Below are positions 5,557 to 57,524 of a stretch of 64,000 bases of DNA, one piece after another. The notes below the pieces were generated by a model. The model saw nothing but the letters and a program-made list of their open reading frames with translations, was not told the origin of the DNA and did no database searches. How positions within the stretch are numbered: position 1 is the first letter of the stretch; each line of letters opens with the position of its first letter. A program made the translations under genes and the position numbers. Source of the stretch: Thermodesulfobacteriota bacterium (GTDB lineage Bacteria > Desulfobacterota > Syntrophorhabdia > Syntrophorhabdales > JANXAF01); assembly GCA_025062045.1 (NCBI GenBank), contig JANXAF010000008.1:13975-77974 (forward strand). Direction: 5' to 3'.

Positions 5557-5586
5557 TTGATTTTTCCCGAACCGAGTTCGTAAAAT
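5557..5586 (+). promoter_or_regulatory. Putative promoter abutting the HD-domain gene start (leaderless geometry)
   Basis: TTGATT (5557..5562), 18 nt, TAAAAT (5581..5586), 7 nt, ATG at 5594. No SD in the gap. Confidence 0.4.
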
Positions 5587-5593
5587 TGATCCA

Positions 5594-6148
5594 ATGGACA
5601 GAGAAAGCGCGCTAAGTATCCTTCGGTTGTATCTAACTAATCACAATCTTATAAAACACAGTTTGGCAACTGAAGCATGTATGAAAGGTCTTGCGTCTCG
5701 ACTAGGAGGAGATGAATTAAAGTGGGGACTTTGTGGACTCCTCCATGACATTGACTATGAAGTCGTAAAAGGAAATATGAAGATGCATGGCATAGAAGGG
5801 GCGAGGATTCTAAAAGAACACGGATTTGATGAAGAGATATGTAATGCTGTTCTATCTCACAATGACGTACACGGCATATCTCCTTATTCGCTTATGGCGA
5901 AAGCTCTCTTTTGTGTTGACCCTCTCACGGGCCTTATCGTTGCCGCAACTTTGGTTTTGCCTTCAAAAAGTATAAACGACCTAAAATGTGAAAATTTACT
6001 CAACCGTTTCAAGGAGAAAAATTTCGCAAAGGGAGCAAAAAGGGAGATAATTTCAAAGTGCAAAGAGTATCTCGATATGGACCTTTACGAGTTTTTTTCC
6101 ATATGTCTCGAAGCAACAAAACTAATAGGAAAAGACCTAGGTCTTTGA
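5594..6148 (+). CDS. HD/HDIG-domain metal-dependent phosphohydrolase
   Basis: 184 aa with the H...HD...H..D signature (LLHDIDYE, LSHND). Confidence 0.8.
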   Translation: MDRESALSILRLYLTNHNLIKHSLATEACMKGLASRLGGDELKWGLCGLLHDIDYEVVKGNMKMHGIEGARILKEHGFDEEICNAVLSHNDVHGISPYSLMAKALFCVDPLTGLIVAATLVLPSKSINDLKCENLLNRFKEKNFAKGAKREIISKCKEYLDMDLYEFFSICLEATKLIGKDLGL

Positions 6149-6169
6149 AACAATACTCGTTTGAAATCG

Positions 6170-7150
6170 CTAGACTCTCTGATTTCTGAGGATATTTGCC
6201 CCTTCCTCAGGGGTAAGTGTCGTTACGTAAAATTCATCCTCCCTTTTATATCTTGCGGTCCTGTAGTCCCTAGGCATTATCTCTACATGCCAGTGGAAAT
6301 ACTCTGAAATGGGTATACTTTTCTCAAAGTCGAGTCCATATCCTTTCTCGTTGGGTGATGTATGGTAGACTATGGTATAGGCATTGGTCAGCCTTTCTAT
6401 CCTTTTCATTACGTCCATAAGAATTTCCGCAAGAAGGCTAAGATTTTCACCTCTATCTGTATTCTCAAAGTTAACCTCGTGAATCTTCGGCAGAATCCAA
6501 ACTTCGAATGTAAATCTCGAAGCAAACGGACAGAAAGCGGCAAACCGGCCATTTTCCGTAACTAGTCTCCTTCTGTCCTTTAGCTCCTGCCTGATTATGT
6601 CACAGAAAAGGCATCTCTCTTTTCTTTCGTAGTGAGCTTTCGCATTTTGGATTTCGTTTTCTATCCTTTTAGGAATGATGGGCGTCGCAAGAATGTGGGA
6701 ATGGGCATGGAATATTCTTGAGCCCGTAAGTTCGCCGTGATTTTTAAAGATCTGGATATATTTGAACCTTTTATCCTTTTTTAAGTCCAAGATTCTCTCC
6801 TGATAGAACCTCAAAAGTAACTCCGTCTCATCTTTTGTAAAACGTGAAAAAACTTTCGTATGTTCGGGCGTCTCAACAACTATTTCATGAGCCCCGGGAT
6901 TTGACATCTTATCGTACATCCCTTCCGCTCGTCTCATTTCCTCGACTTCCGCAATGAATAAAAAGTCCTTTGAAGGAAAACACCTTATCTTCCAGTTACC
7001 AAACTCATCCTTAACTTCTCTTATCGTGTCCGGTGTTAGATGTTCGTTTCCAGGACAGAACGGGCATAGTTCTCTATTTAAAATCGGAATGTATTTATGC
7101 CCGACTATGACCCAGTCCCCAGAGACCGGATCCTTCCTTATTTCGGTCAC
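6170..7150 (-). CDS. Galactose-1-phosphate uridylyltransferase-family (HIT superfamily, GalT-type) nucleotidyltransferase
   Basis: 326 aa. CPFCPGNE zinc motif near the N-terminus and HAHSH (H-x-H-x-H-like catalytic motif). N-terminus EIRKDPVSGDWV is typical of the family. Start codon is GTG. Confidence 0.8.
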   Translation of the reverse strand: MTEIRKDPVSGDWVIVGHKYIPILNRELCPFCPGNEHLTPDTIREVKDEFGNWKIRCFPSKDFLFIAEVEEMRRAEGMYDKMSNPGAHEIVVETPEHTKVFSRFTKDETELLLRFYQERILDLKKDKRFKYIQIFKNHGELTGSRIFHAHSHILATPIIPKRIENEIQNAKAHYERKERCLFCDIIRQELKDRRRLVTENGRFAAFCPFASRFTFEVWILPKIHEVNFENTDRGENLSLLAEILMDVMKRIERLTNAYTIVYHTSPNEKGYGLDFEKSIPISEYFHWHVEIMPRDYRTARYKREDEFYVTTLTPEEGANILRNQRV

Positions 7151-7156
7151 GCAATG

Positions 7157-7185
7157 ATAATACCGGAACTGGGCCTTCGTGTCAA
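7157..7185 (-). promoter_or_regulatory. Near-consensus promoter abutting the GalT-like gene start (leaderless geometry)
   Basis: Minus strand: TTGACA (7185..7180), 17 nt, TATTAT (7162..7157), 6 nt, GTG at 7150. No SD. Confidence 0.5.
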
Positions 7186-7275
7186 AGAGTATTACGATTA
7201 TATCAGTACTTTTTGTAGGCCAGATTGTTAGGCTTCTCCAATGTAGAACTTTTTGGTTACTCTTTTTTATAAATC

Positions 7276-7304
7276 TTGCCAGATAGCTAAACTTTTGATA
7301 ATTT
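7276..7304 (+). promoter_or_regulatory. Putative promoter of the YkgJ-like gene
   Basis: TTGCCA (7276..7281), 17 nt, TAATTT (7299..7304), 12 nt, ATG at 7317. No SD. Confidence 0.3.
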
Positions 7305-7316
7305 GTATTTCATGCC

Positions 7317-7961
7317 ATGCATGGCAGGTCTTTTCTCGAATATGTCTCTTTAGAGGTTCTGAAACTTTACGAGGAAATAGACGAAAAGATCGCGCTTTTT
7401 AAATCAGAGACAGGGATCGATTGTGTTAGAGATTGCGGTGAGTGTTGTTGGAAAGGTCGCGCAAAAATGGTACCACTCGAGTTTTTACCGCTTGCTTTTG
7501 AGTTATTCAGAAGAGAACTCCTCTTTAATTACATCGATATCATAAAAGGTAAGGAGAACGACGTCTGTGTGTTTTACCGAGGAGATCTTTGCGATCCGAA
7601 GAAAGGGTTCTGTAGTTTTTACAGATTGAGGGCTGCAACGTGCAGACTTTACGGATTTGGGTTCAAAAGGAATAAGTACGGCTTTTACGAGCCAGTAATG
7701 TGTGACTATCTAAAAGAGAGATATTTAAGGAGAGGTTTAGATTTGGAAACTCTTCCTTTGGTTGACTATGATTCAATCATGATTAGATTGGTCTCCCTGT
7801 GTTTCCCGCTCGGTCTTGAAAGATACCCTGTAAATCAGGCTATTTTGGTCGCGCTAAATAAGGTGGCTATCCTTGGGTTGGCCAGTTTTACCCATGATCA
7901 CTATGAGGGCTACTCCGATAATAAAGAAGGAGCCCAGTGTAAGAAAAACCGTGTTAATTGA
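7317..7961 (+). CDS. YkgJ-family cysteine-cluster (putative Zn/Fe-chelating, CxxCxxCC) protein
   Basis: 214 aa with CVRDCGECC plus further Cys pairs. The 3' end overlaps the convergent MFS gene by 108 nt. Confidence 0.55.
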   Translation: MHGRSFLEYVSLEVLKLYEEIDEKIALFKSETGIDCVRDCGECCWKGRAKMVPLEFLPLAFELFRRELLFNYIDIIKGKENDVCVFYRGDLCDPKKGFCSFYRLRAATCRLYGFGFKRNKYGFYEPVMCDYLKERYLRRGLDLETLPLVDYDSIMIRLVSLCFPLGLERYPVNQAILVALNKVAILGLASFTHDHYEGYSDNKEGAQCKKNRVN

Positions 7962-9383
7962 GAGCATCATCGACTGGCGAACGAGTTCTCGGTAGATAAA
8001 AGCCATTGAGATATCCGTAAGTAGAGGATCAGAAAAGCCTTTAAGGCTCAGCAAGTATTTGAGTTTTTCAAAAGCTAACTGATAAGAAACTTCGTACGGG
8101 GTTAAGTTCTCTACGAGGTAAGTCTGGTATGTCTGCGCCTTTCTCGATAGGAATGTTGAGACAAAAGCTGTCCCAAAACTTCCACCTATATTCCTTATGA
8201 AACTGATTACGGATGTGGCCATCCCCATTTCCTCTTTTTTTACGTCGCTGATTGAAGCAATAGTTAAAGGGATAAAGACGAGGCCCATTCCGAAGCCCAA
8301 TACCACTCTTGGTATCACCAAAGTAACGAAATCTGTATAGAGGTTAAATTTAGACATTTGATAACAGGCAAACGCATTGGTAAGAAGTCCGGCTATCGCA
8401 ATCAAAAGTGGATTGACTCTATTTACGGCTTTTCCCGCAACCCAAAGAGCAACGATCGACATAACACCTCCCGGACCCAAAACGAGTCCTGTAAGGTACG
8501 CAGTGTATCCTAAAAGTTCCTGTAGATATAAAGGTAGTAGAATTATCGTTCCGAAAAGGCAAAAAAAGGTGAAAAAGAGGGCGCCGTTGCCTAAAGAAAA
8601 GCTTCTGTATGTAAAGAGTCGAAGATCAATTACAGGACTTTTGGATTTCAACTCCCAAACTATGAAAGACGAAAGACAAATAGTGGCAACGATCGTAAGA
8701 ACTTGGATTAACCTTGAAGAGAACCAGTCTTTTAGTTGTCCCTGATCCAAAACGATCTGTAAAGCTCCAACCCCACATGAGACTAAGGCTAGGCCTATGT
8801 AATCGATCTTTACCGGAGTCTTTTTTGCCCAGGGTGGATCTTTTATAAAAAGGATGGTCATTAGAATCGATAGTAAACCGATTGGAATGTTGATAAAGAA
8901 GATCCAGTGCCAGGACCAGTTGTCTGTTATATAGCCACCCAGTATCGGACCAATTATAGGTCCGAGTATGACGCCTGTCCCGAAAACTGCCATGGCCGTG
9001 CCTTGTTCTTTTTTAGGGAACGTTTCAAGAAGAATCGCCTGAGAAATAGGCTGCAAACCACCCCCACCAATGCCCTGGAGTATACGAAACAGTACTATTG
9101 AAGGGATGCTCCATGCGATCCCACAGAGAAAGGAACTTAGAGTAAAAAGCGATAGAGAGATAATAAGGTAGTTTTTTCTTCCAAATATTCTGCTTAGCCA
9201 CCCTGTGATAGTCACTATTACCGCGTTCGATACCATGTACATTGTGAGTATCCACGTCGACTCTTCGAAAGCTCCTCCCAAACTACCCCTTATGTGGCCG
9301 AGGGCCACGTTAACTATCGTCATGTCGATTACCTCTACGAGGGTCGGAAGCATAACGGTGAAGGTGACTATCCACTTGTTCAT
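7854..9383 (-). CDS. MFS transporter, DHA2 (EmrB/QacA-like, 14-TM) drug efflux permease
   Basis: 509 aa and very hydrophobic. MFS motif A-like GxLSRIFGRK. Sits in an operon with HlyD- and TolC-family genes. Confidence 0.85.
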   Translation of the reverse strand: MNKWIVTFTVMLPTLVEVIDMTIVNVALGHIRGSLGGAFEESTWILTMYMVSNAVIVTITGWLSRIFGRKNYLIISLSLFTLSSFLCGIAWSIPSIVLFRILQGIGGGGLQPISQAILLETFPKKEQGTAMAVFGTGVILGPIIGPILGGYITDNWSWHWIFFINIPIGLLSILMTILFIKDPPWAKKTPVKIDYIGLALVSCGVGALQIVLDQGQLKDWFSSRLIQVLTIVATICLSSFIVWELKSKSPVIDLRLFTYRSFSLGNGALFFTFFCLFGTIILLPLYLQELLGYTAYLTGLVLGPGGVMSIVALWVAGKAVNRVNPLLIAIAGLLTNAFACYQMSKFNLYTDFVTLVIPRVVLGFGMGLVFIPLTIASISDVKKEEMGMATSVISFIRNIGGSFGTAFVSTFLSRKAQTYQTYLVENLTPYEVSYQLAFEKLKYLLSLKGFSDPLLTDISMAFIYRELVRQSMMLSINTVFLTLGSFFIIGVALIVIMGKTGQPKDSHLI

Positions 9384-9401
9384 AGGGGACTTAAAGATTC
9401 C

Positions 9402-10460
9402 CTATTTGACTATTATTGTTGGAACACACGACATTCCAATGCGCAAAAGCGCCTTCTTTTTTGGATCCTCATCAAAGACTATCTTCACAGGAATCCTTTG
9501 CACAACCTTTACCCAGTTTCCTGTAGCATTCTCAGGTGGAAATAAAGAAAAGGAGGCCCCTGTGCCGGCCATTATCGAATCTACCTTTCCCTCAAAGACG
9601 ATCCCCGGATAGGAATCTACCTTTATCTTTACTTTCTGTCCCGGTTTTATCTTCTCTATCTGCGTCTCCTTATAGTTCGCAACTACCCAGAGATCGTCAA
9701 GGGATACAAGGGCCATAAGCGGTTGTCCTGGCTGAATCTGATTGCCTTTCTCGACCGACTTTTTGGTCACATATCCATCGGCTGGAGCAACTATTTTCGC
9801 ATAGCTTTTTTTAAGTTTAGCCTCTCCGAGTGTAGCTTCCCTAAGCAGGATTGCTGCTTTTTGAGTTTTTACCGTATTGTTTAGCTGCTCTATTTGAAGG
9901 AGCAGAGTCTCCCTTTGAGCCTCAAGCTGTTTTATCCTTTCTTTTATTGCCTTTAGGGTCGTTCGACTTACGTTGTAGGATGTAAGGGCCTTCTCATACC
10001 TTTCCTTAGGGATCGCCTCCTTTTTGAAAAGATTTTCAGCTCTTTCATAATCGATTCTTGCCTGCTCCATAAGGTAGGTCTGAACCTCCATCTGGGCTTT
10101 TTCGGCCTCAATTGCAGCATCAATCTCAGAAAGCTTTTGTTTAAGGATCAAAACGTTACTTTCGATTTCTGTAAGGCGTCTCTTTTCGATCTCATAGGCG
10201 GCCTCTGCCTCTTTGACCTTATAGTCGTAGTCTTTCTCATCTATCTCCAAAAGTACATCCCCTTTCTTTACGAGTCTATTATCTTCAACGTAAACGGCCT
10301 TCACCGTTCCAGGAACCTTTGACGAAATAATATGGATCCTTCCTTCCACGTACGCATTATCGGTAGTTATGTGGGTCTTTCGATAATGAAGGTAGTATAA
10401 GACAGAAATCACAAGCACAAAGAGCGCACCAATGAGAATGCTTACGCGGACTTTACTCAT
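9402..10460 (-). CDS. HlyD/EmrA-family membrane-fusion (periplasmic adaptor) protein
   Basis: 352 aa with an N-terminal TM helix, a long coiled-coil (EAE.../LEAQ...) and beta-barrel/lipoyl-like flanks. 4-nt overlap with the TolC-like gene. Confidence 0.85.
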   Translation of the reverse strand: MSKVRVSILIGALFVLVISVLYYLHYRKTHITTDNAYVEGRIHIISSKVPGTVKAVYVEDNRLVKKGDVLLEIDEKDYDYKVKEAEAAYEIEKRRLTEIESNVLILKQKLSEIDAAIEAEKAQMEVQTYLMEQARIDYERAENLFKKEAIPKERYEKALTSYNVSRTTLKAIKERIKQLEAQRETLLLQIEQLNNTVKTQKAAILLREATLGEAKLKKSYAKIVAPADGYVTKKSVEKGNQIQPGQPLMALVSLDDLWVVANYKETQIEKIKPGQKVKIKVDSYPGIVFEGKVDSIMAGTGASFSLFPPENATGNWVKVVQRIPVKIVFDEDPKKKALLRIGMSCVPTIIVK

Positions 10461-11791
10461 TTAGAGTACTCCTCCTCAAGGTTTCTTCCTGTTGCGTGTA
10501 AAATTCCGGCTTCTGCCCTTAAAAGATCGTAAATTGCCTTGTAGTAATTCATTTCCGAGCGACCGAGTGCCGCTATTGCATCTAAGACGTCTGTTCCCGT
10601 ACCAACTCCTTCCCTATAGCGTATCTTTGTGATCCTCAGATTCTCCTCTGCTTGTTTAAGAGCGTTTTTTGCCATCTCTAGACGCTCTTTTGCGTTAAAA
10701 AAATCGAGATAGTACCTTTCCAACTCAAGTTTTATATCGTCCTTTAACTTCCTTTCTTCAACGGAAAGCTTCTTTTCCTCAATATCTATACTTTTTAGCT
10801 CAGCAGTGGTTTTTCCGCCGTCATACAAATTTACACTCATTCCAAAAGACACGGATGTTATTCCCTCATGTACCTGATATCTATTCTCAGTGTACGTGTA
10901 TTTTCCTTCCAGATAGAATTTCGGAAGTATTTCAGATTTTTTCGCTCGTCTTATGTAAGAGAGCTGATCCTTTAACTTACTAAGGATTCTGAGCTCTGGT
11001 CTCTCCGAATGGGCCTCTTTCAAATAATCTTCGAAACTCTTAGTAAGAAGAGGTGTCCTTTTCGGTTCTTCAAAAATGAGATCTTCCCAATCTTCTTTTC
11101 CCATCATCTTCTTGAGGATAGAAACCGTGAGTTTTTTTGAATTGTTGGCCGTATTCAGTCTCTGTCTTGCATCTGAGAGTAAAACCTCGGTGTATAAAAC
11201 TTCATTTCTTGTTATAACTCCCTCTTCGTAAAGAGCCTTCGCATCATTTAAGTGGGACTCTAACCTTTCAACTTCCTTTTCAAGGACTGAGATGAGCTTC
11301 TCTTTCTCCTTTAAATCGTAGTAGTGGCATAAGAACTGGAATGCGACACTGTTTTTTACTCGCAAAAGCTCTATTCGTTTTATATCTTCTTCGACTTTTT
11401 TAGAACGATAAAGAGAAAAAGTTCCAAAAAAGTCAAAAACGAGTTGCCTTATCGTTATAGAGTAGGTATGGAAATCCCTCTCGCTTACAGGAACTTCCAC
11501 AACCCTTCCTAAAAAAAAGTTTCTGGCCCTTGGCTCGTGGCTCAAGAAAACCTTTCCGTACGACACTCCAATCTGGGGAAAAAGGTAGGACCTTGCGACC
11601 TTCGATTGAAAAAGGGAGATGGCCTCTTCATATTCCTTTATCTTTATCAGGTTTTCTTCTTGGAGAGCCTTTTTTAGGCCATCCGTTAAGGATAGGACAT
11701 CAAGACTGCTACAAAAAGTTTGTCCTGAAAGACATAGTGAAACTAGTATCACGAACACCACATATCTAGCTACTTTTCCGATACCAGACAA
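10457..11791 (-). CDS. TolC-family outer-membrane efflux protein
   Basis: 444 aa with a signal-peptide-like N-terminus and a two-repeat alpha-helical/coiled-coil architecture. TTG start preceded by GAGGGAG. Confidence 0.8.
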   Translation of the reverse strand: MSGIGKVARYVVFVILVSLCLSGQTFCSSLDVLSLTDGLKKALQEENLIKIKEYEEAISLFQSKVARSYLFPQIGVSYGKVFLSHEPRARNFFLGRVVEVPVSERDFHTYSITIRQLVFDFFGTFSLYRSKKVEEDIKRIELLRVKNSVAFQFLCHYYDLKEKEKLISVLEKEVERLESHLNDAKALYEEGVITRNEVLYTEVLLSDARQRLNTANNSKKLTVSILKKMMGKEDWEDLIFEEPKRTPLLTKSFEDYLKEAHSERPELRILSKLKDQLSYIRRAKKSEILPKFYLEGKYTYTENRYQVHEGITSVSFGMSVNLYDGGKTTAELKSIDIEEKKLSVEERKLKDDIKLELERYYLDFFNAKERLEMAKNALKQAEENLRITKIRYREGVGTGTDVLDAIAALGRSEMNYYKAIYDLLRAEAGILHATGRNLEEEYSK

Positions 11792-11882
11792 ACGTAAGAA
11801 CTCCCTCGGTATATGAGATGGAGTTTACTTTTTATAGGCCGGTCAAAAGCATAGCACAAAGGGATCGAAAAAGTAAAAGGGA

Positions 11883-13352: not shown

Positions 13353-13360
13353 TGCGAAGA

Positions 13361-14074
13361 CTATATAAGAAGGTACCTCTTCTTTATCTCCTCGTTTTTT
13401 TCTAATTCCGTCTTTGTTCCTTCGAACTTTATAACCCCGTTGTCTATCACATAAACCCTGTCTACGAGCTTTAATGCTGAACGGATATTCTGCTCGGCAA
13501 GAAGAATACTGATTCCTGCCTTTTTTAGATTCAGTATCTGTTCTTCTAGTGCCTTTACAACAAGTGGGGCCAAGCCTTCTGTGGGTTCATCTAGAAGTAA
13601 GAGTTCAGGACTTCCCATCAAGGCCCTTGCGATTGTGAGCATCTGCTGTTCTCCGCCCGAAAGATTTCCGGCCCTTCTGTCCCTAATCGATTTTAAAGCT
13701 GGAAATAGTTCATAGACTGTCTCCTTCGTCCATTCGTTCGACCTTTTGTAGACGATTTCAAGATTGTCCTCCACCGTAAGATCCGCAAATACTCTTCTGT
13801 CATCCGGAACGTAACCGATACCTTTTCTAAAAAGCACATACGGCGGTTTTCCAACTATGGATTCTCCTTTAAAGATGATGTCTCCACTTTTTGGCGGATT
13901 TATCCCAATTATGCTTTTCATGGTTGTGCTTTTACCAGCACCGTTCCTCCCTAAAAGCCCAACAATTTCACCCTTAAAGACTTTAAGCGAAACATCAAAG
14001 AGTATATGGCTTAGGCCATAGAAAGTATTTATACTTCTAACTTCCAGAAGACACAGATCATTCATAACTCGCAC
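13361..14074 (-). CDS. Branched-chain-amino-acid-type ABC transporter ATP-binding protein (LivF-like)
   Basis: 237 aa with Walker A GRNGAGKST, signature LSGGEQQ and Walker B LLLLDEP. Confidence 0.9.
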   Translation of the reverse strand: MRVMNDLCLLEVRSINTFYGLSHILFDVSLKVFKGEIVGLLGRNGAGKSTTMKSIIGINPPKSGDIIFKGESIVGKPPYVLFRKGIGYVPDDRRVFADLTVEDNLEIVYKRSNEWTKETVYELFPALKSIRDRRAGNLSGGEQQMLTIARALMGSPELLLLDEPTEGLAPLVVKALEEQILNLKKAGISILLAEQNIRSALKLVDRVYVIDNGVIKFEGTKTELEKNEEIKKRYLLI

Positions 14075-15714: not shown

Positions 15715-15719
15715 CTCCC

Positions 15720-16598: not shown

Positions 16599-16608
16599 AG
16601 CCCTTCCG

Positions 16609-17823: not shown

Positions 17824-17848
17824 GCTAACCCCCTCTTGGTTTTAAAAT

Positions 17849-17878
17849 TTGATATCAGAGAAGCTTTTTTCATGTCAA
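17849..17878 (-). promoter_or_regulatory. Putative promoter of the ABC-transporter operon (leadered)
   Basis: Minus strand: TTGACA (17878..17873), 18 nt, TATCAA (17854..17849). This gives a ~25-nt leader with a strong SD before the ATG at 17823. Confidence 0.35.
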
Positions 17879-17910
17879 CGACTGTACTTAAGACCAAAAA
17901 CCTCATCCCA

Positions 17911-19200
<1,290 letters not shown>

Positions 19201-19205
19201 CTACT

Positions 19206-19235
19206 ATTCTACACAGACATTATGCGAAAAGGCAA
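19206..19235 (-). promoter_or_regulatory. Possible purA promoter close to the start codon
   Basis: Minus strand: TTGCCT (19235..19230), 18 nt, TAGAAT (19211..19206), 8 nt, ATG at 19197. purA could equally be read through from the upstream gene, which ends 47 nt away. Confidence 0.3.
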
Positions 19236-19244
19236 CTTTAAAGG

Positions 19245-22630: not shown

Positions 22631-23458
22631 CTAGAGAGGAAGAATGTCTTTTTCGATAAGCTTTTCTAACAAGAGCTCAACCGCTCCTTCCGGATCGGCT
22701 TCTCCATCGCCTAGAATCTCTCCCCTTTTCCTCTCAGGTGCAAAGATCCGTTTTACATTTGTTGGGGAACCTTTAAGTCCTATTTTGTCCTCCGGCAGAT
22801 TAAGAACTGAGTTACTCCAAACTGGAATCTCTGCTTCTTCCGCCTCGAGAGCCCTTAAAACCGTAAAGTAACGCGGGGTATTTATCTCTCTTACTACTGT
22901 AAGGAGTGCTGGTAGACTTGCTCTAACTATCTCTTTTCTTCCTTCGAGCTTCCTTCTTACCGTGATCGTGTATTGAACTAAATCAATGTCAAGTATTTTG
23001 TCCACAAGTGTTAGCTGAGAGAACCTAAGTCTTGTCGCTATGCCTGGGCCGACTTGAGCGGTATCTCCATCTATCGTTTGTTTGCCACATATTACAAGAT
23101 CGACTCTCCCATACTCAGCCATAATCTTCTTTATAGCTTCTGCGAGGACAAGGCTTGTGGCAAGGGTATCTGCACCCGCAAATTTTATGTCAGAAAGAAG
23201 TATAGCCTCATCCACGCCCATCGCTAAACATCTTTTCAGTGTGTATATCGCATTGGGAGGTCCCATAGATATGGCTATAACTTTACAGCCAAAGGCGTCT
23301 TTAATCCTTAAGGCCTCTTCCACAGCGTGGGTATCGAAAGGATTCATAATGAAAGGAACGCCTTCTCTTATTAAGGTTCCGGTATTTGGATCGACCCGAA
23401 CCTGCGTTGTGTCAGGAACCTGTTTCACTGCAACTACGATTCTATTTAGTGTTCTCAT
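22631..23458 (-). CDS. etfB: Electron transfer flavoprotein beta subunit
   Basis: 275 aa. N-terminus has the VAVKQVPD motif, and the DLVICGKQTIDGDTAQVGP region is typical of EtfB. Confidence 0.85.
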   Translation of the reverse strand: MRTLNRIVVAVKQVPDTTQVRVDPNTGTLIREGVPFIMNPFDTHAVEEALRIKDAFGCKVIAISMGPPNAIYTLKRCLAMGVDEAILLSDIKFAGADTLATSLVLAEAIKKIMAEYGRVDLVICGKQTIDGDTAQVGPGIATRLRFSQLTLVDKILDIDLVQYTITVRRKLEGRKEIVRASLPALLTVVREINTPRYFTVLRALEAEEAEIPVWSNSVLNLPEDKIGLKGSPTNVKRIFAPERKRGEILGDGEADPEGAVELLLEKLIEKDILPL

Positions 23459-23467
23459 GCTAAGCGT

Positions 23468-23496
23468 TTTTTATCACACGAACCTCCATGTGTCAA
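23468..23496 (-). promoter_or_regulatory. Putative etfBA promoter close to the start codon
   Basis: Minus strand: TTGACA (23496..23491), 17 nt, TAAAAA (23473..23468), 9 nt, ATG at 23458. No SD. An alternative -10 reading is TGtGATAAA. Confidence 0.3.
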
Positions 23497-29474: not shown

Positions 29475-29789
29475 CTATGAGAATAAGGCGTAGAGATAAA
29501 TTAAAACCAATGAGATTATTCCGGCTAGCGCATTCGAAGCGATAAAGAGCTTTTTTTCGTTCCTGTAACCCAAATCTAGCACTATATTGCGGATACCGTA
29601 TACGCTATGGAAGGTGAAAAGAACAAGAATGAGAATATCCATCGCCGGATTCCTATGGAGGCTTAACGCCCAATCAGGCTTGGCATCCTTAGTAAAAAGA
29701 AAGAAACTTGTAAAAATCTTTATCCCGAAAAGGATAAGAAGGGCAACTCCACTTATTCTGTGGAAGAGCCATATGAACATGGCTTTCAA
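29475..29789 (-). CDS. sdhC: Short (3-TM) succinate dehydrogenase/fumarate reductase membrane-anchor subunit
   Basis: 104-aa ORF (TTG) or 101 aa from the ATG at 29780. Three hydrophobic helices with His residues (FHRISG, LHRNP, FHSVYG). Directly abuts the sdhA start. It is the only anchor-like gene upstream of sdhA. Confidence 0.65.
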   Translation of the reverse strand: MKAMFIWLFHRISGVALLILFGIKIFTSFFLFTKDAKPDWALSLHRNPAMDILILVLFTFHSVYGIRNIVLDLGYRNEKKLFIASNALAGIISLVLIYLYALFS

Positions 29790-29818
29790 TTAGTAACAGT
29801 TAATGGAACTTGAGTCAA
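29790..29818 (-). promoter_or_regulatory. Putative promoter of the sdh-Rieske-cytochrome b operon
   Basis: Minus strand: TTGACT (29818..29813), 17 nt, TACTAA (29795..29790), 9 nt, ATG at 29780. No SD. The -35 element is embedded in the palindrome CTTGAcTCAAG. Confidence 0.35.
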
Positions 29819-29865: not shown

Positions 29866-29882
29866 GAAAGAGGTGCTTTTAT

Positions 29883-30828: not shown

Positions 30829-31388
30829 TTTTTTCTTCCGACAAATCTGGCCAAAGCTCTCCTTTTTCCATTCGTCTCAAATATCCCTTCTTCGTAAAAG
30901 ATGCATTCAAAGTCCTCGAATAGATGGAGCAACTCTCCGTCTTCCAAAAGATAGTCCGGGTTGCGAAATCCCTCTATTAAGTTTTGCCGTTTAAGATATG
31001 TCTCGTATACTAAAAGTCCATCCTTTTTGAGCAGATTTTTAAGTTCTTTCACGATCCCTCGTATCAGAAAGTAAAAAACGAGAACACAACCAAATTTACC
31101 TTCCTTGAAAGGCAGGTTTTGGGCATCGGCCCTCACAAGGAAGAAATCTTTCATTCCTTTTTTATTAAACCTCTCTTTTGCCTGTCTTAGCGCCTCCATA
31201 GATATGTCCATTCCTATAGCCCTATATCCTCTCTCCGAAAGAAAGATTAAGTCCCTGCCAATACCCATGGCGATCTCGAGTACTGGTCCCGATTTTATCA
31301 AAGAATGGTACCTTTCAAGGACCCAGTGTGTCTTTAAATCTCGCGAATAAAAGCCTTCTTTGTACCTTCTCTCCCAGTCTACACTCAT
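30825..31388 (-). CDS. Class I SAM-dependent methyltransferase
   Basis: Motif I VLEIAMGIGRD and the post-I acidic residue GMDIS. The ORF track starts at TTG 31424, but the ATG at 31388 (MSVDWERRY) fits the family N-terminus and the adjacent promoter. Confidence 0.75.
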   Translation of the reverse strand: MSVDWERRYKEGFYSRDLKTHWVLERYHSLIKSGPVLEIAMGIGRDLIFLSERGYRAIGMDISMEALRQAKERFNKKGMKDFFLVRADAQNLPFKEGKFGCVLVFYFLIRGIVKELKNLLKKDGLLVYETYLKRQNLIEGFRNPDYLLEDGELLHLFEDFECIFYEEGIFETNGKRRALARFVGRKK

Positions 31389-31395
31389 GTCGAAG

Positions 31396-31424
31396 ATTGT
31401 AGGATAGACTTTTTCAGTTTTCAA
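31396..31424 (-). promoter_or_regulatory. Promoter abutting the methyltransferase start (leaderless geometry)
   Basis: Minus strand: TTGAAA (31424..31419), 17 nt, TACAAT (31401..31396), 7 nt, ATG at 31388. No SD. Confidence 0.45.
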
Positions 31425-31433
31425 TGCTATAAA
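31405..31433 (+). promoter_or_regulatory. Extended -10 promoter abutting the HAD hydrolase start (leaderless geometry)
   Basis: TAGACT (31405..31410), 17 nt (the last three being TGc), TATAAA (31428..31433), 6 nt, ATG at 31440. No SD. Confidence 0.45.
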
Positions 31434-31439
31434 ACGGGT

Positions 31440-32081
31440 ATGCCTTCAAGGGTACTATTTTTGGATTGCGATGGAACCCTAACTCAAATCAAAAGTAGCT
31501 GGGAGTATCTCCACAGACGCTTAAACTTATGGGATGATCTGGCAGAGCACTTCCAAAGGCTATACCTTGAAGGAAAGATCGACTATTACGAATTTTGCAG
31601 AAAAGATGCCTACCTCTGGGCAGGGAGATCGCTAAAAGAAGTATTAGAAATCGTAAAAGAGATACCTCTCACAAAAGGTGCGGAAAAAGCTATAAAGATT
31701 TTAAAGGATATGGGTTTTTACACAGTTATAGTTTCTACGGGACTTAGCCTCGTTGTAAACAGAGTGAAGGAATTACTTGGTATCGATCTTGCGGTATCCA
31801 ATGAACTTTTAACCTCCGATGGGTTTATAACAGGGAAGATTAATATAAACGTGGAACAGGGAAGAAAGGACAGAGTCGTCAAAAACGTACTAAAGAGATT
31901 TGGCCTAAGAAGGGAAGACGCCTTCGCCATAGGGGATGGGGTAGGCGATCTTACAATGTTTCAAAGCGTGGGGGTCTCGATAGGGTTTAACCCTGAACCA
32001 GAAATCATTCCCTACGTGAACTACTCGGTAACAAGCGATAATCTTTTGGATGTGGTCCCGCTTTTGGAGTTGCATCGGTGA
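31440..32081 (+). CDS. HAD-superfamily hydrolase (phosphoserine-phosphatase-like subfamily IB)
   Basis: 213 aa with DCDGTLT (DxDxT), VSTGLS and GDGVGD motifs. Confidence 0.75.
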   Translation: MPSRVLFLDCDGTLTQIKSSWEYLHRRLNLWDDLAEHFQRLYLEGKIDYYEFCRKDAYLWAGRSLKEVLEIVKEIPLTKGAEKAIKILKDMGFYTVIVSTGLSLVVNRVKELLGIDLAVSNELLTSDGFITGKININVEQGRKDRVVKNVLKRFGLRREDAFAIGDGVGDLTMFQSVGVSIGFNPEPEIIPYVNYSVTSDNLLDVVPLLELHR

Positions 32082-32536: not shown

Positions 32537-32592
32537 TTTACTTATGCGGTTTCTGTGTGGTATATGCATCTATAATCCAAAAAAGGAGGGAT

Positions 32593-38024: not shown

Positions 38025-38053
38025 TTGACAGGTGAGAACTTGTTTAATAATAT
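38025..38053 (+). promoter_or_regulatory. Near-consensus promoter abutting the LOG-family gene start (leaderless geometry)
   Basis: TTGACA (38025..38030), 17 nt, TAATAT (38048..38053), 6 nt, ATG at 38060. Confidence 0.5.
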
Positions 38054-38059
38054 AACGCC

Positions 38060-38746
38060 ATGTCCAAAAATCTCAAGCCAAAAGGGGCAACTCAGATGGA
38101 AAAGCAATTTTTGATCGATGAAATAACTCTTCGAGACACATGGAGGCTTTTCAGAATCATGGCGGAGTTTGTCGAAGGGTTCGAAAATCTTTCAGATATA
38201 TACCCGGCAGTCAGTATTTTCGGAAGCGCCAGGTGCAAGAAGGATGACCCTCTTTACGCCAAGACCTACCAGCTTGCAAGGTCCTTGGGAAGAAATGGCT
38301 TTAACATAATAACTGGCGGCGGTGGAGGAGTAATGGAGGCTGCAAATAAGGGGGCAAGGGATGCAGGTGTAAAATCCGTAGGCCTAAACATAGAACTGCC
38401 CCTTGAGCAAAAACCCAATCCTTATGCTAACATTAAGCTGAATTTCAGGTACTTCTTCGTAAGAAAGGTTATGTTTATCAAGTATGCTATAGGCTACATA
38501 ATAATGCCCGGTGGCTTCGGAACCCTAGATGAATGCTTTGAAGCTATAACCCTTATCCAGACGAAAAAGGTAAAACCGTTTCCAGTTGTACTTGTAGACT
38601 CGGAATATTGGGCGGGCCTTGTGGAGTGGATCAAAAACAAACTTTTGGGCTCCGGTGCTATATGTCCTGAAGACTTAAATATTTTTACCGTCATGGACGA
38701 CATAGATGAAATTGTTGCTTACATTAAGAAATTCATAATTCTTTGA
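38060..38746 (+). CDS. LOG-family (TIGR00730-type) Rossmann-fold nucleotide N-ribohydrolase
   Basis: 228 aa with the GGGGGVMEAANKGA and PGGFGTLDE motifs. An alternative internal start is the ATG at 38099 (MEKQF), preceded by AAGGGG. Confidence 0.85.
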   Translation: MSKNLKPKGATQMEKQFLIDEITLRDTWRLFRIMAEFVEGFENLSDIYPAVSIFGSARCKKDDPLYAKTYQLARSLGRNGFNIITGGGGGVMEAANKGARDAGVKSVGLNIELPLEQKPNPYANIKLNFRYFFVRKVMFIKYAIGYIIMPGGFGTLDECFEAITLIQTKKVKPFPVVLVDSEYWAGLVEWIKNKLLGSGAICPEDLNIFTVMDDIDEIVAYIKKFIIL

Positions 38747-39485
38747 CCTTTCTTGCAAATATGAGGTAGCCTGTGTGTGCCACCATTCTGTCGACCGGTC
38801 TTATCCTTTCCGGAACAGTTTTATAAGGTCTGATAAGTATCTCCAATACTTCAATATTTGCAAATCCGCGTTCCAGTCCCTTCAAGGTTTCAGAGATCTG
38901 GTTGGCTGTCGGAACTATAGTTCCTACAACACCGCTCGGTTTTAAGACTTCCCAGATTTTTTCGGTATATAGCCAAGGCTCCCTGACATCGATAAAACAC
39001 GCATCGAATTCATCCCCCTTAATAGAGTCTACATCTCCAAGTATTAGATCCACGTTCGCTAGCTCTCCGAAAGATTCGAGATTTTTTTTCAAATTTTTGT
39101 AATGCCTCTCTTCCCTCTCTAGGCTCACAACCTTTCCCTCCTTACCGCACGCACGGGAAAACACAAGGGTGAGACCTCCGCTTCCAGCTCCTATTTCTAA
39201 TACTTTCGAACCATTTTTCAGGTTCAATTTGAGGCATACATAGGCACTGTCTTTCGGATAAACAATCTGCGTCTCCCTCCTTAGTCCCAGCATGATGACG
39301 TCTTCTAAAGTCGGTTCTAAAATCGCATACTCCCCGTATTTAAAACCAAATTCCTTGCCTATTAGCTCGTCGTATGACAATCTTCCACCCTTTCCAAAGT
39401 AGGATTCCCCCTTTTTTACTCGCTTTAGGTATCTTCTGTCATTATGGACGATTAGGACATACGTGCCGTCTTCGATCTTGGGCAT
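38733..39485 (-). CDS. trmI: tRNA (adenine-N1)-methyltransferase (TrmI/GCD14 family)
   Basis: Contains VLEIGAGSGGLT (SAM motif), FDACFIDVREPW and the C-terminal HTGYLIFARK. The track ORF extends to 39593 across the divergent promoter and the response-regulator start, but the ATG at 39485 (MPKIEDGTYV) fits the family N-terminus. Confidence 0.8.
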   Translation of the reverse strand: MPKIEDGTYVLIVHNDRRYLKRVKKGESYFGKGGRLSYDELIGKEFGFKYGEYAILEPTLEDVIMLGLRRETQIVYPKDSAYVCLKLNLKNGSKVLEIGAGSGGLTLVFSRACGKEGKVVSLEREERHYKNLKKNLESFGELANVDLILGDVDSIKGDEFDACFIDVREPWLYTEKIWEVLKPSGVVGTIVPTANQISETLKGLERGFANIEVLEILIRPYKTVPERIRPVDRMVAHTGYLIFARKVKEL

Positions 39486-39530
39486 TGCGTAAAAAGTATT
39501 CAGAATCTTTAAGATTTTTTCAACGGAAAA

Positions 39531-39539
39531 TGCTATAAT
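39531..39539 (+). promoter_or_regulatory. Extended -10 element (TGcTATAAT) abutting the response-regulator start
   Basis: TGCTATAAT at 39531..39539, 7 nt, GTG at 39547. No SD and no in-frame ATG upstream before a stop. Confidence 0.4.
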
Positions 39540-39546
39540 AACCTTT

Positions 39547-40218
39547 GTGGAAGTCCTTCTCATCGAAGATGAGGAAAAGCTTTTAGACTTCATGAAGAAA
39601 GGGCTCGAAGAAGAAGGTTATGCAGTGGATGTCGCACTTGACGGCAAATCAGGTCTCGAACTGATCCTTAAAAAGAACTACGACATAATATTACTTGACC
39701 TCATGATTCCCGAAATAGACGGGCTTGAGCTTCTAAGAATCGTAAGAGCACAAGGTGTCGATACGCCTGTCCTAATAATTACCGCAAGGACTTCAAAGGA
39801 GGACATAGTGAGGGGACTTGATTTAGGAAGCGATGACTATCTTACGAAACCTTTTTCGTTCGACGAGTTACTTGCGAGGATGAGGGCTCTCCTTCGGAGG
39901 AGTAAATCGAAGGATTCACGGATTATGGAGTACAAAGAACTTAAGCTCGATCCTTACACGAGAAAACTCATGGTTTCCTCGAAGGATGTGGATCTTACCG
40001 AAAAGGAATTTATGATTTTGGAATACATGTTCAGACATAGAGAAAGACCATTGACGAGGGAAGAGATTGGAGCGTATGTGTGGGGAGGGAAGATCGATTC
40101 CACAAACATTGTGGATGTGTACGTAAATTTTTTGAGGAAGAAGATGGAAAAGCTTTCAAAGAAAAGGTACATCCAAACCATAAGAGGAACTGGATACATT
40201 CTCAAGGATGAAAATTAA
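39547..40218 (+). CDS. OmpR/PhoB-family DNA-binding response regulator
   Basis: 223 aa with a receiver domain (LLIEDEE, ILLDLMIP, ITART, YLTKPF) and a winged-helix domain (IQTIRGTGYIL). Confidence 0.9.
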   Translation: MEVLLIEDEEKLLDFMKKGLEEEGYAVDVALDGKSGLELILKKNYDIILLDLMIPEIDGLELLRIVRAQGVDTPVLIITARTSKEDIVRGLDLGSDDYLTKPFSFDELLARMRALLRRSKSKDSRIMEYKELKLDPYTRKLMVSSKDVDLTEKEFMILEYMFRHRERPLTREEIGAYVWGGKIDSTNIVDVYVNFLRKKMEKLSKKRYIQTIRGTGYILKDEN

Positions 40219-48802: not shown

Positions 48803-48804
48803 TT

Positions 48805-52129: not shown

Positions 52130-53435
52130 CCGGATCTCCGTATATGATATTTCTCGCTTTTTCGAGGTACTCTTTGAGCTTCACCTCATAACCCCTCGTC
52201 GTTGGAAAGTAGTACCTTTTCTGTGCGATCTCTTCCGGTCTGTAACTTTGTTTCACAATACCGCCCTCAAAATCGTGCGGGTATAAGTACTCTTTCCCAT
52301 ATCCCAAATCCCGCATCAGTTTGGTAGGCGCAGTCCTAAGATGAATAGGAACCGGATATTCTGGAAGTTCAGAGACATCTTTTTCTGCTTTTTGTAGTGC
52401 CACGTAAACGGAATTACTCTTCTCACATAACGATAGGTATATGCAAGCTTGGGCAAGGGCGAGATAACCTTCTGGAGGACCCAAAAACTCAAAAGCCTCC
52501 TTTGCCGATATGGCAAGTGTTAGAGCATATGGGTCTGCACAACCCACATCCTCAGACGCAAATATTACCATTCTACGCGCAATATAGAGGGGATCTTCTC
52601 CTGCATTTATCATCCGCATCATCCAGTACAAAGCCGCATCTGGATCGGAGCCTCTCATGCTCTTTATAAACGCACTTGCAAGTCCGTAATGCATGTCACC
52701 TTTTCTGTCGTAAGTCCTCGGTCTTATCTGGCAAGCCTCAAATATGCATTCACTGTCAACTGACTGAAGATTCTTCTCTTTCGCTAAAGAATGGCTCATT
52801 TCCAATATCGTTAGAGCCCTTCTTGCGTCACCATCAGAAAGAGAGGCTATAAGAGAAAGCATCTCATCGTTTACTAAAACGCCAGAAGTGTTAAGCTCAG
52901 AGTTGTCTTTCGCCCTTTTTAATATAAAAAATAATTCCTCCTCTGATAGCGGGTTGAGCTTCACCACCTTCATTCGCGAAAGAAGAGGTTTTATTATCGC
53001 GAAGGAAGGGTTTTCCGTCGTTGCTCCGATAAGAAGAATCTGACCTTTCTCCACATAAGGTAGAAATAGATCCTGCTTGCTTCTATTGAGACTGTGAAAT
53101 TCGTCCAAGAAAAGAAGAATCTTCTCATTTTTAGACCTTTTTATAATCTCCCTCATTTCTTTTACACCGATGCTAACTGCGCTTAAAAATATTGCGTAAA
53201 GACCAAGCTCTTTCGCTATTATATAAGCTAAAGTCGTCTTTCCACACCCGCTTGGGCCCCAAAGGACCATAGATGGAACCTTTTTCTGTTTAATTAAGGT
53301 AAAGAGCAATTTTCCTTTCCCCAGAACGTGTGTCTGACCTACGAATTCCTTAAGAGTTTGCGGTCTCATTCTTTCCGCAAGAGGGACAGTATAAGGTTCT
53401 TTTCTTCCTGTATCAAAGAGATCCACAATCGTCAT
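52101..53435 (-). CDS. rarA: Replication-associated recombination protein A (AAA+ ATPase RarA/MgsA)
   Basis: 444 aa with PLAERMRPQTL.EFVGQ, Walker A GPSGCGKTT, Walker B LFLDEFH and the MgsA C-terminal domain (HYGLASAFIKSMRGSDPDAALYW). Confidence 0.95.
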   Translation of the reverse strand: MTIVDLFDTGRKEPYTVPLAERMRPQTLKEFVGQTHVLGKGKLLFTLIKQKKVPSMVLWGPSGCGKTTLAYIIAKELGLYAIFLSAVSIGVKEMREIIKRSKNEKILLFLDEFHSLNRSKQDLFLPYVEKGQILLIGATTENPSFAIIKPLLSRMKVVKLNPLSEEELFFILKRAKDNSELNTSGVLVNDEMLSLIASLSDGDARRALTILEMSHSLAKEKNLQSVDSECIFEACQIRPRTYDRKGDMHYGLASAFIKSMRGSDPDAALYWMMRMINAGEDPLYIARRMVIFASEDVGCADPYALTLAISAKEAFEFLGPPEGYLALAQACIYLSLCEKSNSVYVALQKAEKDVSELPEYPVPIHLRTAPTKLMRDLGYGKEYLYPHDFEGGIVKQSYRPEEIAQKRYYFPTTRGYEVKLKEYLEKARNIIYGDPDGDSRERAR

Positions 53436-53559
53436 GATACCAGTTTTCTTTTCGCATTTTCAAACAGTCAAGAAGGGCTTTTGAGTCTTTATCTGGCGAG
53501 AAAATCTGTTTTAAAGGGGTAAGTTGGATTCTGGCTTAAACAGAAATTTAAAAAGGAGC

Positions 53560-53943: not shown

Positions 53944-53953
53944 GTCCTGCTCC

Positions 53954-55622: not shown

Positions 55623-55633
55623 CTCTTTCTCCT

Positions 55634-56023: not shown

Positions 56024-56032
56024 TTTACCACC

Positions 56033-56401
56033 TCACTTCTTCTTCCTCATAGAACTCTTTCTTGGTCCTTTTCTCGTTCTAGCATTAGTTCTAGTTCTCT
56101 GTCCCCGAACCGGCAGACCCCGTCTGTGTCTTAGGCCCCTGTAGCATCCAATGTCCATGAGCCTTTTTATGTTCATGCTTATCTCTTTTCTTAAATCCCC
56201 TTCGATCTTATAGTTTTTCTCTATTATGTCCCTTATTTTGGCTATCTCCTCATCCTTTAAATCCTTGGTCTTTCTTGAGGGATCAATACCGGCCTGTTCT
56301 AGGATTTTACTTGCGGAAGATTTACCAATACCGAATATGTAGGTTAAAGCTATGTCTATTCGCTTTTCTTTGGGGATATCTACGCCCGCTATTCTTGCCA
56401 A
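56033..56401 (-). CDS. rpsM: 30S ribosomal protein S13
   Basis: 122 aa beginning [14 protein letters not shown]. Confidence 0.97.
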
Positions 56402-56412
56402 TTTTTCCTCCT

Positions 56413-56526
56413 TTAACCCTGTCTCTGCTTATGCTTGGGATTTACGCAGATTACGCGCAAAATCCCCTTTCTCTTGATTATTTTGCACTTGTCGCACCTT
56501 CTCTTAATAGATGGTCTTACCTTCAT
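56413..56526 (-). CDS. rpmJ: 50S ribosomal protein L36 (zinc-binding form)
   Basis: Not in the ORF track because it is under 60 aa. Reverse translation of 56526..56413 gives [37 protein letters not shown] followed by a stop. Located between infA and rpsM, as expected. Confidence 0.9.
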
Positions 56527-56535
56527 TTTTGCTCC

Positions 56536-56754
56536 TCATTTAACTCGACTGATTATCCTCCCCCTCGTCAGATCGTAGGGGGAAAGTTCGACTATAACTT
56601 TGTCTCCTTTGAGTATTTTAATGTAGTGCATCCTCATCTTGCCAGAAACGTGAGCGAGGACTTTGTGTCCATTTGGCAGTTCGACCCGAAACATGGCGTT
56701 TGGAAGAGGCTCTATTACGGTTCCTTCTACTTCTATTCCTTCACCTTTAGGCAT
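56536..56754 (-). CDS. infA: Translation initiation factor IF-1
   Basis: 72 aa with the S1-like domain sequence [31 protein letters not shown]. Confidence 0.97.
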
Positions 56755-56758
56755 AACT

Positions 56759-57508
56759 TCAAACCAAACTTAGAATTTCTGGACCTTTTTCAGTTATTGC
56801 CACCGTGTGTTCAAAATGGGCTGACAAGCTCATATCCTTTGCGTATGCTGTCCATCCGTTTTCGGCAATAGATATTTCATTTCTTCCCATGTTCACCATC
56901 GGCTCGATTGCTAAAACCATTCCCTTCTTTAACCTTGGTCCGGTACCTTTCTCTCCAAAATTTGGAATCTGAGGCTCCTCGTGAAGACTCCTTCCTATCC
57001 CGTGGCCTACAAACTCTTTTACAACCGAAAACCCGTTTCCTTCAACATGGGACTGGATTGCATGCGATATATCGTATAGTCTATTTCCCTCGCGTGCCAT
57101 CTCTATGCCCTTAAATAACGCTTCTCTCGTAACATCGATCAGTTTCTGGGCCGCCTTTGATATCTTTCCCACACCATAAGTAACAGCCACGTCTCCATAG
57201 TAGCCTTCGTATATAACACCGAAATCGAGACTAACGATGTCTCCTTCTTTTAGAATCCTATCCGAAGGCATTCCATGCACAATCTCTTCATTAACCGACA
57301 CACAAAGCATAAAAGGATAGCCGTTATAGCCTTTAAAGGCAGCTCTAACCTTCTTTAAGGCCTTTATTTTCTCCTCGCATATTTTTTCTAGTTCCTTCGT
57401 TCTTATGCCTTCTTTTATAAACTCACCAAGGTAAAGAAGTATCTCCATGGCATATTTGCTCGCTGTCCTTATCTTTTCTATCTCCTCCTCAGTTTTGAGG
57501 ACTATCAT
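56759..57508 (-). CDS. map: Type I methionyl aminopeptidase
   Basis: [14 protein letters not shown] is a canonical Map N-terminus. Metal ligands are in the expected context (DIVSLD, GYYGD, GHGIG, EPM, EH). The track ORF begins at an upstream TTG (57541), which is unlikely to be the start. Confidence 0.9.
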
Positions 57509-57515
57509 TGTAAAT

Positions 57516-57524
57516 ATTATACCA
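57516..57524 (-). promoter_or_regulatory. Perfect extended -10 element (TGgTATAAT) 7 nt upstream of the map ATG
   Basis: The minus strand reads TGGTATAAT (57524..57516), then atttaca, then ATG at 57508. It lies in the 45-nt secY-map spacer. No SD. Confidence 0.45.

Follow-up and report, generated by a model that had tools for sequence, protein, structure and literature searches.

Start codons abutting sigma-70-type promoters and candidate leaderless mRNAs in a genome segment from the Syntrophorhabdales

The DNA stretch under study (the window, 64,000 nucleotides) comes from a Thermodesulfobacteriota bacterium (Desulfobacterota; Syntrophorhabdia; Syntrophorhabdales; JANXAF01) and spans positions 13,975 to 77,974 of contig JANXAF010000008.1 in assembly GCA_025062045.1. 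In about ten of its transcription units a sigma-70-type promoter stands directly in front of the first gene, with the -10 box ending 6-9 nt before the start codon. These promoters carry either a TTGACA-like -35 box, a spacer of 17-18 bp and a TAnnnT -10 box, or an extended -10 box of the TGnTATAAT form. The geometry is in excess of shuffled controls, goes with the lack of a Shine-Dalgarno (SD) sequence and with start codons restricted to ATG and GTG, and is conserved in relatives. Most of the genes so arranged probably yield leaderless or near-leaderless mRNAs. Canonical GGAGG-type SDs stand before most operon-internal genes and also precede roughly one first gene in three. An earlier note on the window had proposed such a division into two initiation modes, with abutting promoters and no SD in many first genes and SDs in coupled genes, and this proposal fits every computational test made. 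All twelve promoter strings that it listed, and its four contrasting SDs, are found where it placed them.

In sigma-70 promoters the -10 hexamer covers positions -12 to -7, and RNA polymerase normally initiates about 7 nt downstream of it. When the gap is 6 nt, +1 thus falls on the start codon's first base, always a purine here. From this geometry we infer where transcription would start and how ribosomes would be recruited. With gaps of 6-7 nt (the GalT-like, HAD hydrolase, HD-domain, OmpR-type response regulator, methyltransferase (MTase), map and rarA genes) the first transcribed base would be the A or G that opens the ATG or GTG, and with gaps of 8-9 nt (purA, sdhC, etfB and the GCD14-type tRNA methyltransferase gene) it would have a leader of 1-3 nt. 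Such mRNAs would offer no room for an SD, and the ribosome with initiator tRNA would bind the 5'-terminal AUG or GUG directly. This leaderless route is known from lambda cI, Actinobacteria and Deinococcus. Starts swap freely between ATG and GTG among orthologues and the sequence of the 6-8 nt gap is not conserved, as expected if the gap serves spacing only.

A single fixed promoter criterion (that of the scanning tool itself plus an extended -10 rule) was used so that sites were not judged after the fact: at least 4/6 matches per hexamer, at least 9/12 in total and A2 and T6 in the -10 box, or TGn plus at least 5/6. The gap is the number of nt between the end of the -10 hexamer and the start codon. 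SDs were scored by the free energy (dG) of the duplex with the 16S 3' end and taken as present at dG of -6 kcal/mol or lower. The window has a GC content of 43% and codes for a Wood-Ljungdahl cluster (fhs, folD, CdhD-type genes, a CODH), an ETF operon, an sdh/Rieske/cytochrome b operon, a glycosyltransferase cluster, a two-component system and the spc/alpha ribosomal protein operons. The nearest named relatives are Syntrophorhabdaceae (55-74% amino-acid identity), and identical DNA is present in the Logan assemblies SRR15826899/SRR15826900. Among the syntenic relatives, loci L083 and L168 belong to a single 221-kb JGI contig and share 50-88% amino-acid identity with the window, and assembly GCA_026417175.1 contains L163 and L169. 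The others are L165 and L166, the cultured Syntrophorhabdus aromaticivorans (L164, KI867150.1) and more loci from Syntrophorhabdus metagenome-assembled genomes (MAGs). A scan of genome contigs for SdhA, whose best match was 71% (Syntrophorhabdus MAGs), yielded the loci used to compare sdhC and those used as controls.

By the fixed criterion, 6/21 first genes (HD, GalT, purA, MTase, LOG and OmpR) have a -10 box ending 6-8 nt before the start. In 5000 dinucleotide shuffles of these 60-nt upstream regions the count averages 0.11 and does not exceed 3. The earlier note had named a genome-wide comparison with shuffled controls among the checks on its claim; for the window, such a comparison comes out in the claim's favour. 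Each of the remaining 3-nt offset bins (0-29 nt) holds 0-1 gene, and five of the six starts are those of the longest open reading frame (ORF) and hence independent of the hypothesis. About 11/21 first genes fit the pattern more broadly. As sigma-70 promoters, the sites match the -35/-10 hexamers at 9-11/12 with 16-18 bp spacing, or have TGn plus at least 5/6. A second, annotation-free scan took 121 promoter-like sites on both strands and measured their distance to any ATG or GTG that starts an ORF 80 or more codons long. Nine sites fall at gaps 6-8, versus 1.9 expected from offsets 12-45 (0.62 per offset; Poisson P = 1.4e-4), and the same scan of three close relatives gives 11 versus 2.1. Gaps of 6-7 nt are the commonest in the window, and a gap of 6 nt is the commonest in relatives. 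No peak is found in control taxa (1 versus 3.8 in Syntrophales loci, 33 versus 31.4 in 66 other GTDB loci), so the peak is not created by the method.

These figures bear on whether the motifs are chance matches in AT-rich intergenic DNA that were gathered after the fact. The overall density of promoter-like sites would allow this, being no higher than in shuffles over window positions 1-20000 (38 versus 31.3 +/- 5.6), and several of the listed -10 boxes are weak. Density was dropped as evidence for lack of enrichment, and only position relative to starts was used. On position, no shuffle in 5000 reaches six genes, the control bins are nearly empty, the start-agnostic scan shows a clear excess, control taxa show none and orthologues keep the geometry. 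Chance is refuted for the set as a whole, its probability being negligible; etfB and YkgJ could individually be chance.

Candidate genes and SD-led genes differ in their anti-SD pairing. Duplex dG is -3.0 kcal/mol or weaker in all candidates but map (-7.2), and -6 to -12 in genes scored as SD-led, which include most operon-internal genes, among them those of the ribosomal protein operon. Among first genes an SD is present in 0/11 of those with an abutting promoter versus 7/10 of the others (folD, fhs, OEP, ABC binding protein, CCG protein, fmdB and rpsM; Fisher P = 0.001). The restriction on start codons is more telling than this contrast. In the window and six loci of the clade, gaps 6-8 show an excess of ATG (13 versus 4.5) and GTG (11 versus 2.1) and none of TTG (1 versus 1.7) or CTG (1 versus 1.9). 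TTG is the start of 7/38 SD-led genes in the window. Positions of all candidates, together with three SDs of first genes, are collected in Table 1. The SD of the cdhA-like gene is GGGAGGT.

Table 1. Promoter-abutting start codons, the LOG leader and SDs of first genes in the window (motifs as -35, spacer length, -10, gap, start codon with position)
Feature	Positions	Strand	Motif	Remark
HD-domain	5557..5596	+	TTGATT-18-TAAAAT-7-ATG(5594)	No SD, dG -2.2; leaderless candidate
GalT-like (DUF4931)	7148..7185	-	TTGACA-17-TATTAT-6-GTG(7150)	Strongest leaderless candidate
YkgJ-like	7276..7319	+	TTGCCA-17-TGaTAATTT-12-ATG(7317)	No SD; ambiguous
purA	19195..19235	-	TTGCCT-18-TAGAAT-8-ATG(19197)	No SD, dG -2.7; candidate for leaderless mRNA or 1-2 nt leader
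etfB	23456..23496	-	TTGACA-17-TGaTAAAAA-9-ATG(23458)	No SD, dG +0.6; weak -10; near-leaderless candidate
sdhC	29778..29818	-	TTGACT-17-TGtTACTAA-9-ATG(29780)	Near-leaderless candidate
Methyltransferase (MTase)	31386..31424	-	TTGAAA-17-TACAAT-7-ATG(31388)	Leaderless candidate, start uncertain
HAD hydrolase	31405..31442	+	TAGACT-17-TGcTATAAA-6-ATG(31440)	Leaderless candidate
LOG promoter	38025..38062	+	TTGACA-17-TAATAT-6-ATG(38060)	ATG at predicted transcription start
LOG 5' leader	38063..38098	+	Box AAATCTCAAG 38068-38077; SD AAAAGGGG 38080-38087	Start ATG 38096 (Met13)
GCD14-type tRNA methyltransferase	39483..39523	-	TTGAAA-17-AATACT-9-ATG(39485)	Added case, absent from the earlier note
OmpR-type response regulator	39531..39549	+	Extended -10, TGcTATAAT-7-GTG(39547)	No SD, dG +1.8; leaderless candidate
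rarA (revised promoter and start)	53424..53463	-	TTGAAA-18-TGgTATCAT-7-GTG(53426)
map	57506..57524	-	Extended -10, TGgTATAAT-7-ATG(57508)	45-nt secY-map spacer within ribosomal protein operon
fhs SD	5432..5439	-	AAGGAGGA	6 nt before ATG 5425; dG -11.4; kept in L163 and L165
ABC binding protein SD	17829..17836	-	AGAGGGGG	ATG 17823; dG -11.8; GGGGGG in L166
fmdB-like SD	29870..29875	+	GAGGTG	ATG 29883; TATAAT upstream at gap 17

The promoter of the GalT-like gene ranks first in the promoter scan (11/12). Its arrangement recurs with a gap of 6 before GTG in L163, 6 before ATG in L165 and 7 before ATG in S. aromaticivorans, and the alignment of the four genomes shows conserved hexamers and coding part and a divergent spacer. 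Most homologues have 325-326 residues. In S. aromaticivorans (L164 10001-10039) the public annotation, of 337 residues, begins at the TTG of the -35 box TTGACA; the conserved amino terminus MAELRKDP is found 12 codons after that start and 7 nt past TAATAT. Other GalT homologues of 337 residues in the databases may carry the same amino-terminal extension. The HD-domain gene has orthologues with gap 6 and ATG (L163) or GTG (L165), which likewise code for 184 residues. The purA orthologue of L166 reads TAGACT-9-ATG and has no SD; in the window the Pfam domain of purA begins at residue 6, and purA homologues have 428 residues. For purA, as for sdhC, the geometry is kept more loosely than for the other conserved cases. 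An inositol-monophosphatase gene, which is not in the window, has the same layout with gap 6 in three relatives.

Conservation also bears on several starts. The -10 of map reads TGGTATAAT-7-ATG in the window and TGGTATAAT-8-ATG in L168 and L169, a layout thus seen in three genomes; the abutting promoter is absent in the Syntrophorhabdaceae locus L170. Among the matches listed, 120/120 map homologues have 249 residues, which places the start at ATG 57508 rather than at an upstream TTG. The start of sdhC is placed at ATG 29780, and again not at an upstream TTG, because of the conserved amino terminus MF[IV]W. Six Syntrophorhabdus-type loci have TTGACA-17/18-TATCTA-like-7..11-ATG without SD before sdhC, and the orthologues of Syntrophales and Aminicenantes have clear SDs. 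The earlier note had held that start-codon choice would be affected in sdhC, map, LOG and MTase: this holds for the first two, fails for LOG, whose conserved start is the SD-led Met13, and is in doubt for MTase, whose ATG is out of frame in L083. Its promoter and start for rarA (TTGACT-17-GAAAAC-7-ATG 53435) are not conserved, that ATG lying inside the -10 box and being out of frame in L168 and L169; they give way to the element that ends at GTG 53426, which is kept in these two loci with gap 6 and GTG GAT (three genomes including the window). The same geometry had been claimed for YkgJ, whose own ATG follows at a gap of 12; a nearer ATG, at gap 7 (7312), is not in the ykgJ frame. This nearer ATG opens a 13-codon ORF (MPCMAGLFSNMSL, 7312-7353) that overlaps the ykgJ start; since it coincides with the position where transcription is predicted to start, the ORF could be a leaderless mini-ORF, or it could have no meaning.

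The start codons of two divergent gene pairs are separated by no more than 51 nt (MTase/HAD) and 61 nt (GCD14/OmpR). Their promoters interdigitate back to back (31396-31433; 39495-39539), each -35 box being placed inside the 17-bp spacer of its partner, and both layouts are conserved in L083. Such spacing leaves no room for two promoters plus leaders, and it suggests that the paired promoters may compete for polymerase through mutually exclusive binding. The HAD gene of L083 has TGtTATAAA-6-GTG; in the window gene the Pfam HAD domain begins at residue 5 and there is no upstream in-frame start. For GCD14, L083 has TTGAAA-17-GATACT-8-GTG followed by a matching amino terminus, and a public gene call on the same DNA (L081) of 250 residues fits ATG 39485. 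The OmpR gene of L083 has TGaTATAAT, a divergent gap and then GTG (gap 6 in the scan); in the window gene the receiver domain begins at residue 3. An upstream TTG (31424) was considered as start of MTase and is unlikely, having no in-frame counterpart in L083.

The hexamers might also be something other than promoters, namely an A/U-rich translation enhancer or a non-SD ribosome-binding signal on mRNAs from distal promoters. AT-rich DNA is common upstream of starts and non-SD motifs are known in other phyla (group B, PMC6028130). Such a signal does not call for a conserved TTGACA 17-18 bp further upstream, which is kept while the spacer diverges. Neither TTG starts nor operon-internal genes, which use GGAGG, are preceded by the motif, and in the close divergent pairs any distal promoter would have to lie within coding sequence. 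This alternative is scarcely plausible.

Several points weigh against leaderless mRNAs as the explanation. The sample of 21 first genes is small and the counts from relatives are not independent, the genes being orthologous. The +1 positions are predictions from promoter geometry. The anticorrelation of SD and abutting promoter is partly forced, because both signals would occupy the same bases. In several cases the -10 box lacks T6 or T1 (TATAAA, TAAAAA, TACTAA, AATACT), and map has GGGTGG 13 nt upstream of its start (dG -7.2). The orthologues of etfB in L166 and L167 stand in another context, are SD-led and have no abutting promoter; they do not share the geometry that the earlier note gave for this gene, and the arrangement in the window is read as lineage-specific. 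In L083 the promoter hexamers of MTase are identical to those of the window and the ATG at gap 7 is followed by TAG, out of frame. In this stretch of L083 (3340-3360), which differs from the window by 1 nt in length, only a GTG placed 12 nt past the -10 box is in frame; the difference reflects either an indel in the assembly or a genuine shift of the start to GTG. Where gaps reach 8-12 nt, the mRNAs would have short leaders and would not be leaderless in the strict sense. Such gaps agree with the alternative that the promoters are real and the mRNAs have leaders of 1-10 nt translated independently of SD, for example through an unstructured A/U-rich 5' end. They occur in purA, sdhC, etfB, GCD14 and YkgJ, and the sdhC gaps of 7 to 11 in relatives and the in-frame MTase start of L083 point the same way. 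The modal gaps put +1 on the start codon instead, and restriction to ATG and GTG is expected of leaderless and not of leadered initiation. Short leaders are therefore an unlikely general account.

A further contrary case is LOG, where a conserved promoter abutting an in-frame ATG coexists with a conserved SD-led start. The earlier note had listed this gene as leaderless, a claim that comparison with relatives overturns. All 10 sequences compared have the same -35 and -10 boxes before LOG, whereas an ATG at gap 6 is found only in the window and L083. In eight relatives of 69-74% identity (among L084-L092 and L098) the stretch equivalent to window codons 1-12 either is interrupted by in-frame stops or lacks an ATG. 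The same stretch is conserved there as nucleotides, with a box AAAATCTCAAGG, an SD AAAAAGGGG and then ATG GA(A/G) AA. Between the window and L083, 5/6 codon differences in codons 1-12 alter the amino acid, which argues against protein-level constraint. The conserved non-coding leader and its SD (dG -7.0 in the window) lead to the conclusion that LOG has a normal SD-led start at 38096. We speculate that ATG 38060 gives a second, longer LOG isoform. The box upstream of the SD is conserved across relatives of 69-88% identity, in most of which it is non-coding; a role as regulatory RNA or as operator is conceivable. A shared operator was considered and rejected, since AAATCTCAAG is not repeated beyond chance elsewhere in the window (10 matches versus 10.3 expected). 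Both in the window and in L083 (about 9940), the ROK-family kinase gene divergent from LOG (ATG 38000) lacks an SD as well as a promoter abutting its start. The ROK-LOG intergenic region has 59 nt and is largely filled by the LOG promoter.

LOG is exactly what would be seen if annotated starts were wrong and the true SD-led starts were downstream, behind ordinary leaders of 20-40 nt: a conserved leader and AAAAGGGG precede Met13. The epimerase gene is of this kind too, its start being probably the second ATG 23600 (MKILITGG; GGAGA 3-4 nt upstream, dG -6.4) rather than the first ATG 23591. No candidate other than LOG has a downstream SD-led alternative, the SDs of their downstream in-frame starts being no better than about -5 kcal/mol. 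Pfam domains begin 2-20 residues from the proposed starts and homologue lengths agree with them for GalT, Map, HD and purA. Domain offsets and homologue lengths, with the conserved amino terminus of sdhC, back the starts of GalT, HD, purA, HAD, OmpR, map and sdhC; the conserved leader contradicts that of LOG. As an explanation of the set, misplaced starts are very unlikely, and leaderless or near-leaderless mRNAs are the preferred one.

Some further features of the window were noted. Internal genes at 11883-13352, 25525-26625, 27768-29474, 32533-33063 and 47771-49452 have no detectable SD (dG about 0 to +2). Their stop and start codons mostly overlap or abut those of the neighbouring genes; these genes may be translationally coupled, or their starts may be mis-set by the longest-ORF rule (for example sdhA, TTG ATG 29474/29471). 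The rpmJ gene (L36, 37 residues; 56413-56526, minus strand), missed by the ORF-length cut-off, occupies the apparent 134-nt gap between infA and rpsM, and is also present in L169 and L170. Terminator-like hairpins in window positions 1-20000 number 31 versus 18.3 +/- 4.6 in shuffles, many of them within coding regions. No tRNA genes were found in the window. No Rfam family matched anywhere in the window when gathering thresholds were applied, so that no known leader RNA or riboswitch accounts for the intergenic regions.

Similar organizations have been described in other bacteria. In group C of GeneMarkS-2 the Pribnow box is 6-8 nt from the starts of first genes and 25-50% of operons are predicted to be leaderless (Lomsadze et al. 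2018, PMC6028130). As in that group, internal genes and the remaining first genes of the window rely on SDs and about 11/21 first genes have the abutting arrangement; the likeness rests on statistics of the window. Unlike group C, which is reported mainly for Actinobacteria and Deinococcus-Thermus and is rare in Proteobacteria (5.6%; PMC6028130), the present case is from Desulfobacterota of 43% GC and has full TTGACA/TATAAT-type promoters. TA-led genes, which have TANNNT about 10-12 bp upstream of the start, were validated by dinucleotide shuffling (Zheng et al. 2011, PMC3160421). They were reported in 8/33 delta-proteobacterial genomes (15.8% of genes on average), and groups of medium GC have a full TAtaaT box. 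The main text of that survey names no delta-proteobacterial species and neither Syntrophorhabdus nor relatives. Shifts of initiation mode between orthologues are common to TA-led genes and to the window (etfB, sdhC), whereas that survey covered whole genomes and the present case 64 kb plus relatives.

For leaderless initiation in mycobacteria it is both necessary and sufficient that the mRNA opens with ATG or GTG; TTG and CTG fail (Shell et al. 2015, PMC4633059). The abutting starts described here are likewise ATG and GTG only, and interchange between orthologues. Mycobacterial promoters usually have no clear -35 box, whereas a TTGACA-like -35 or an extended -10 is found here. According to the account of Deinococcus deserti given in PMC6028130 (de Groot et al. 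2014, cited there), 167/262 genes with verified starts are leaderless, with the -10 box directly upstream. The mycobacterial case was established by transcription start site mapping, ribosome profiling and reporters and that of D. deserti, a member of another phylum, was verified experimentally, whereas the present one is read from sequence. A literature search for leaderless initiation together with Syntrophorhabdus found no paper linking the two, and a search with the sample and assembly accessions found no paper.

The pattern proposed for the window is of the known group C or TA-led kind, and existing knowledge of the mechanism of leaderless initiation is unchanged. New are the lineage and the predicted local features: full -35/-10 promoters, overlapping divergent pairs, an internal map promoter and the dual arrangement of LOG. 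The main practical value is for gene-start annotation in the lineage, as in the GalT-like gene of S. aromaticivorans; longest-ORF calls would misplace the starts of sdhC, map, rarA and the GCD14 methyltransferase. The orthologue switches of sdhC, etfB and LOG indicate that genes may move easily between the two modes. A mid-GC anaerobic clade of Desulfobacterota, kin of a syntrophic family, would join the bacteria that mix leaderless and SD-led initiation. We tentatively propose, with somewhat less than even confidence, that the window represents an unrecognised leaderless-rich clade beside Syntrophorhabdaceae in which a 5' GUG is tolerated, divergent promoter pairs overlap, map has a leaderless promoter and LOG has two isoforms. 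If so, it would be a leaderless-rich lineage inside a group usually treated as SD-dominated.

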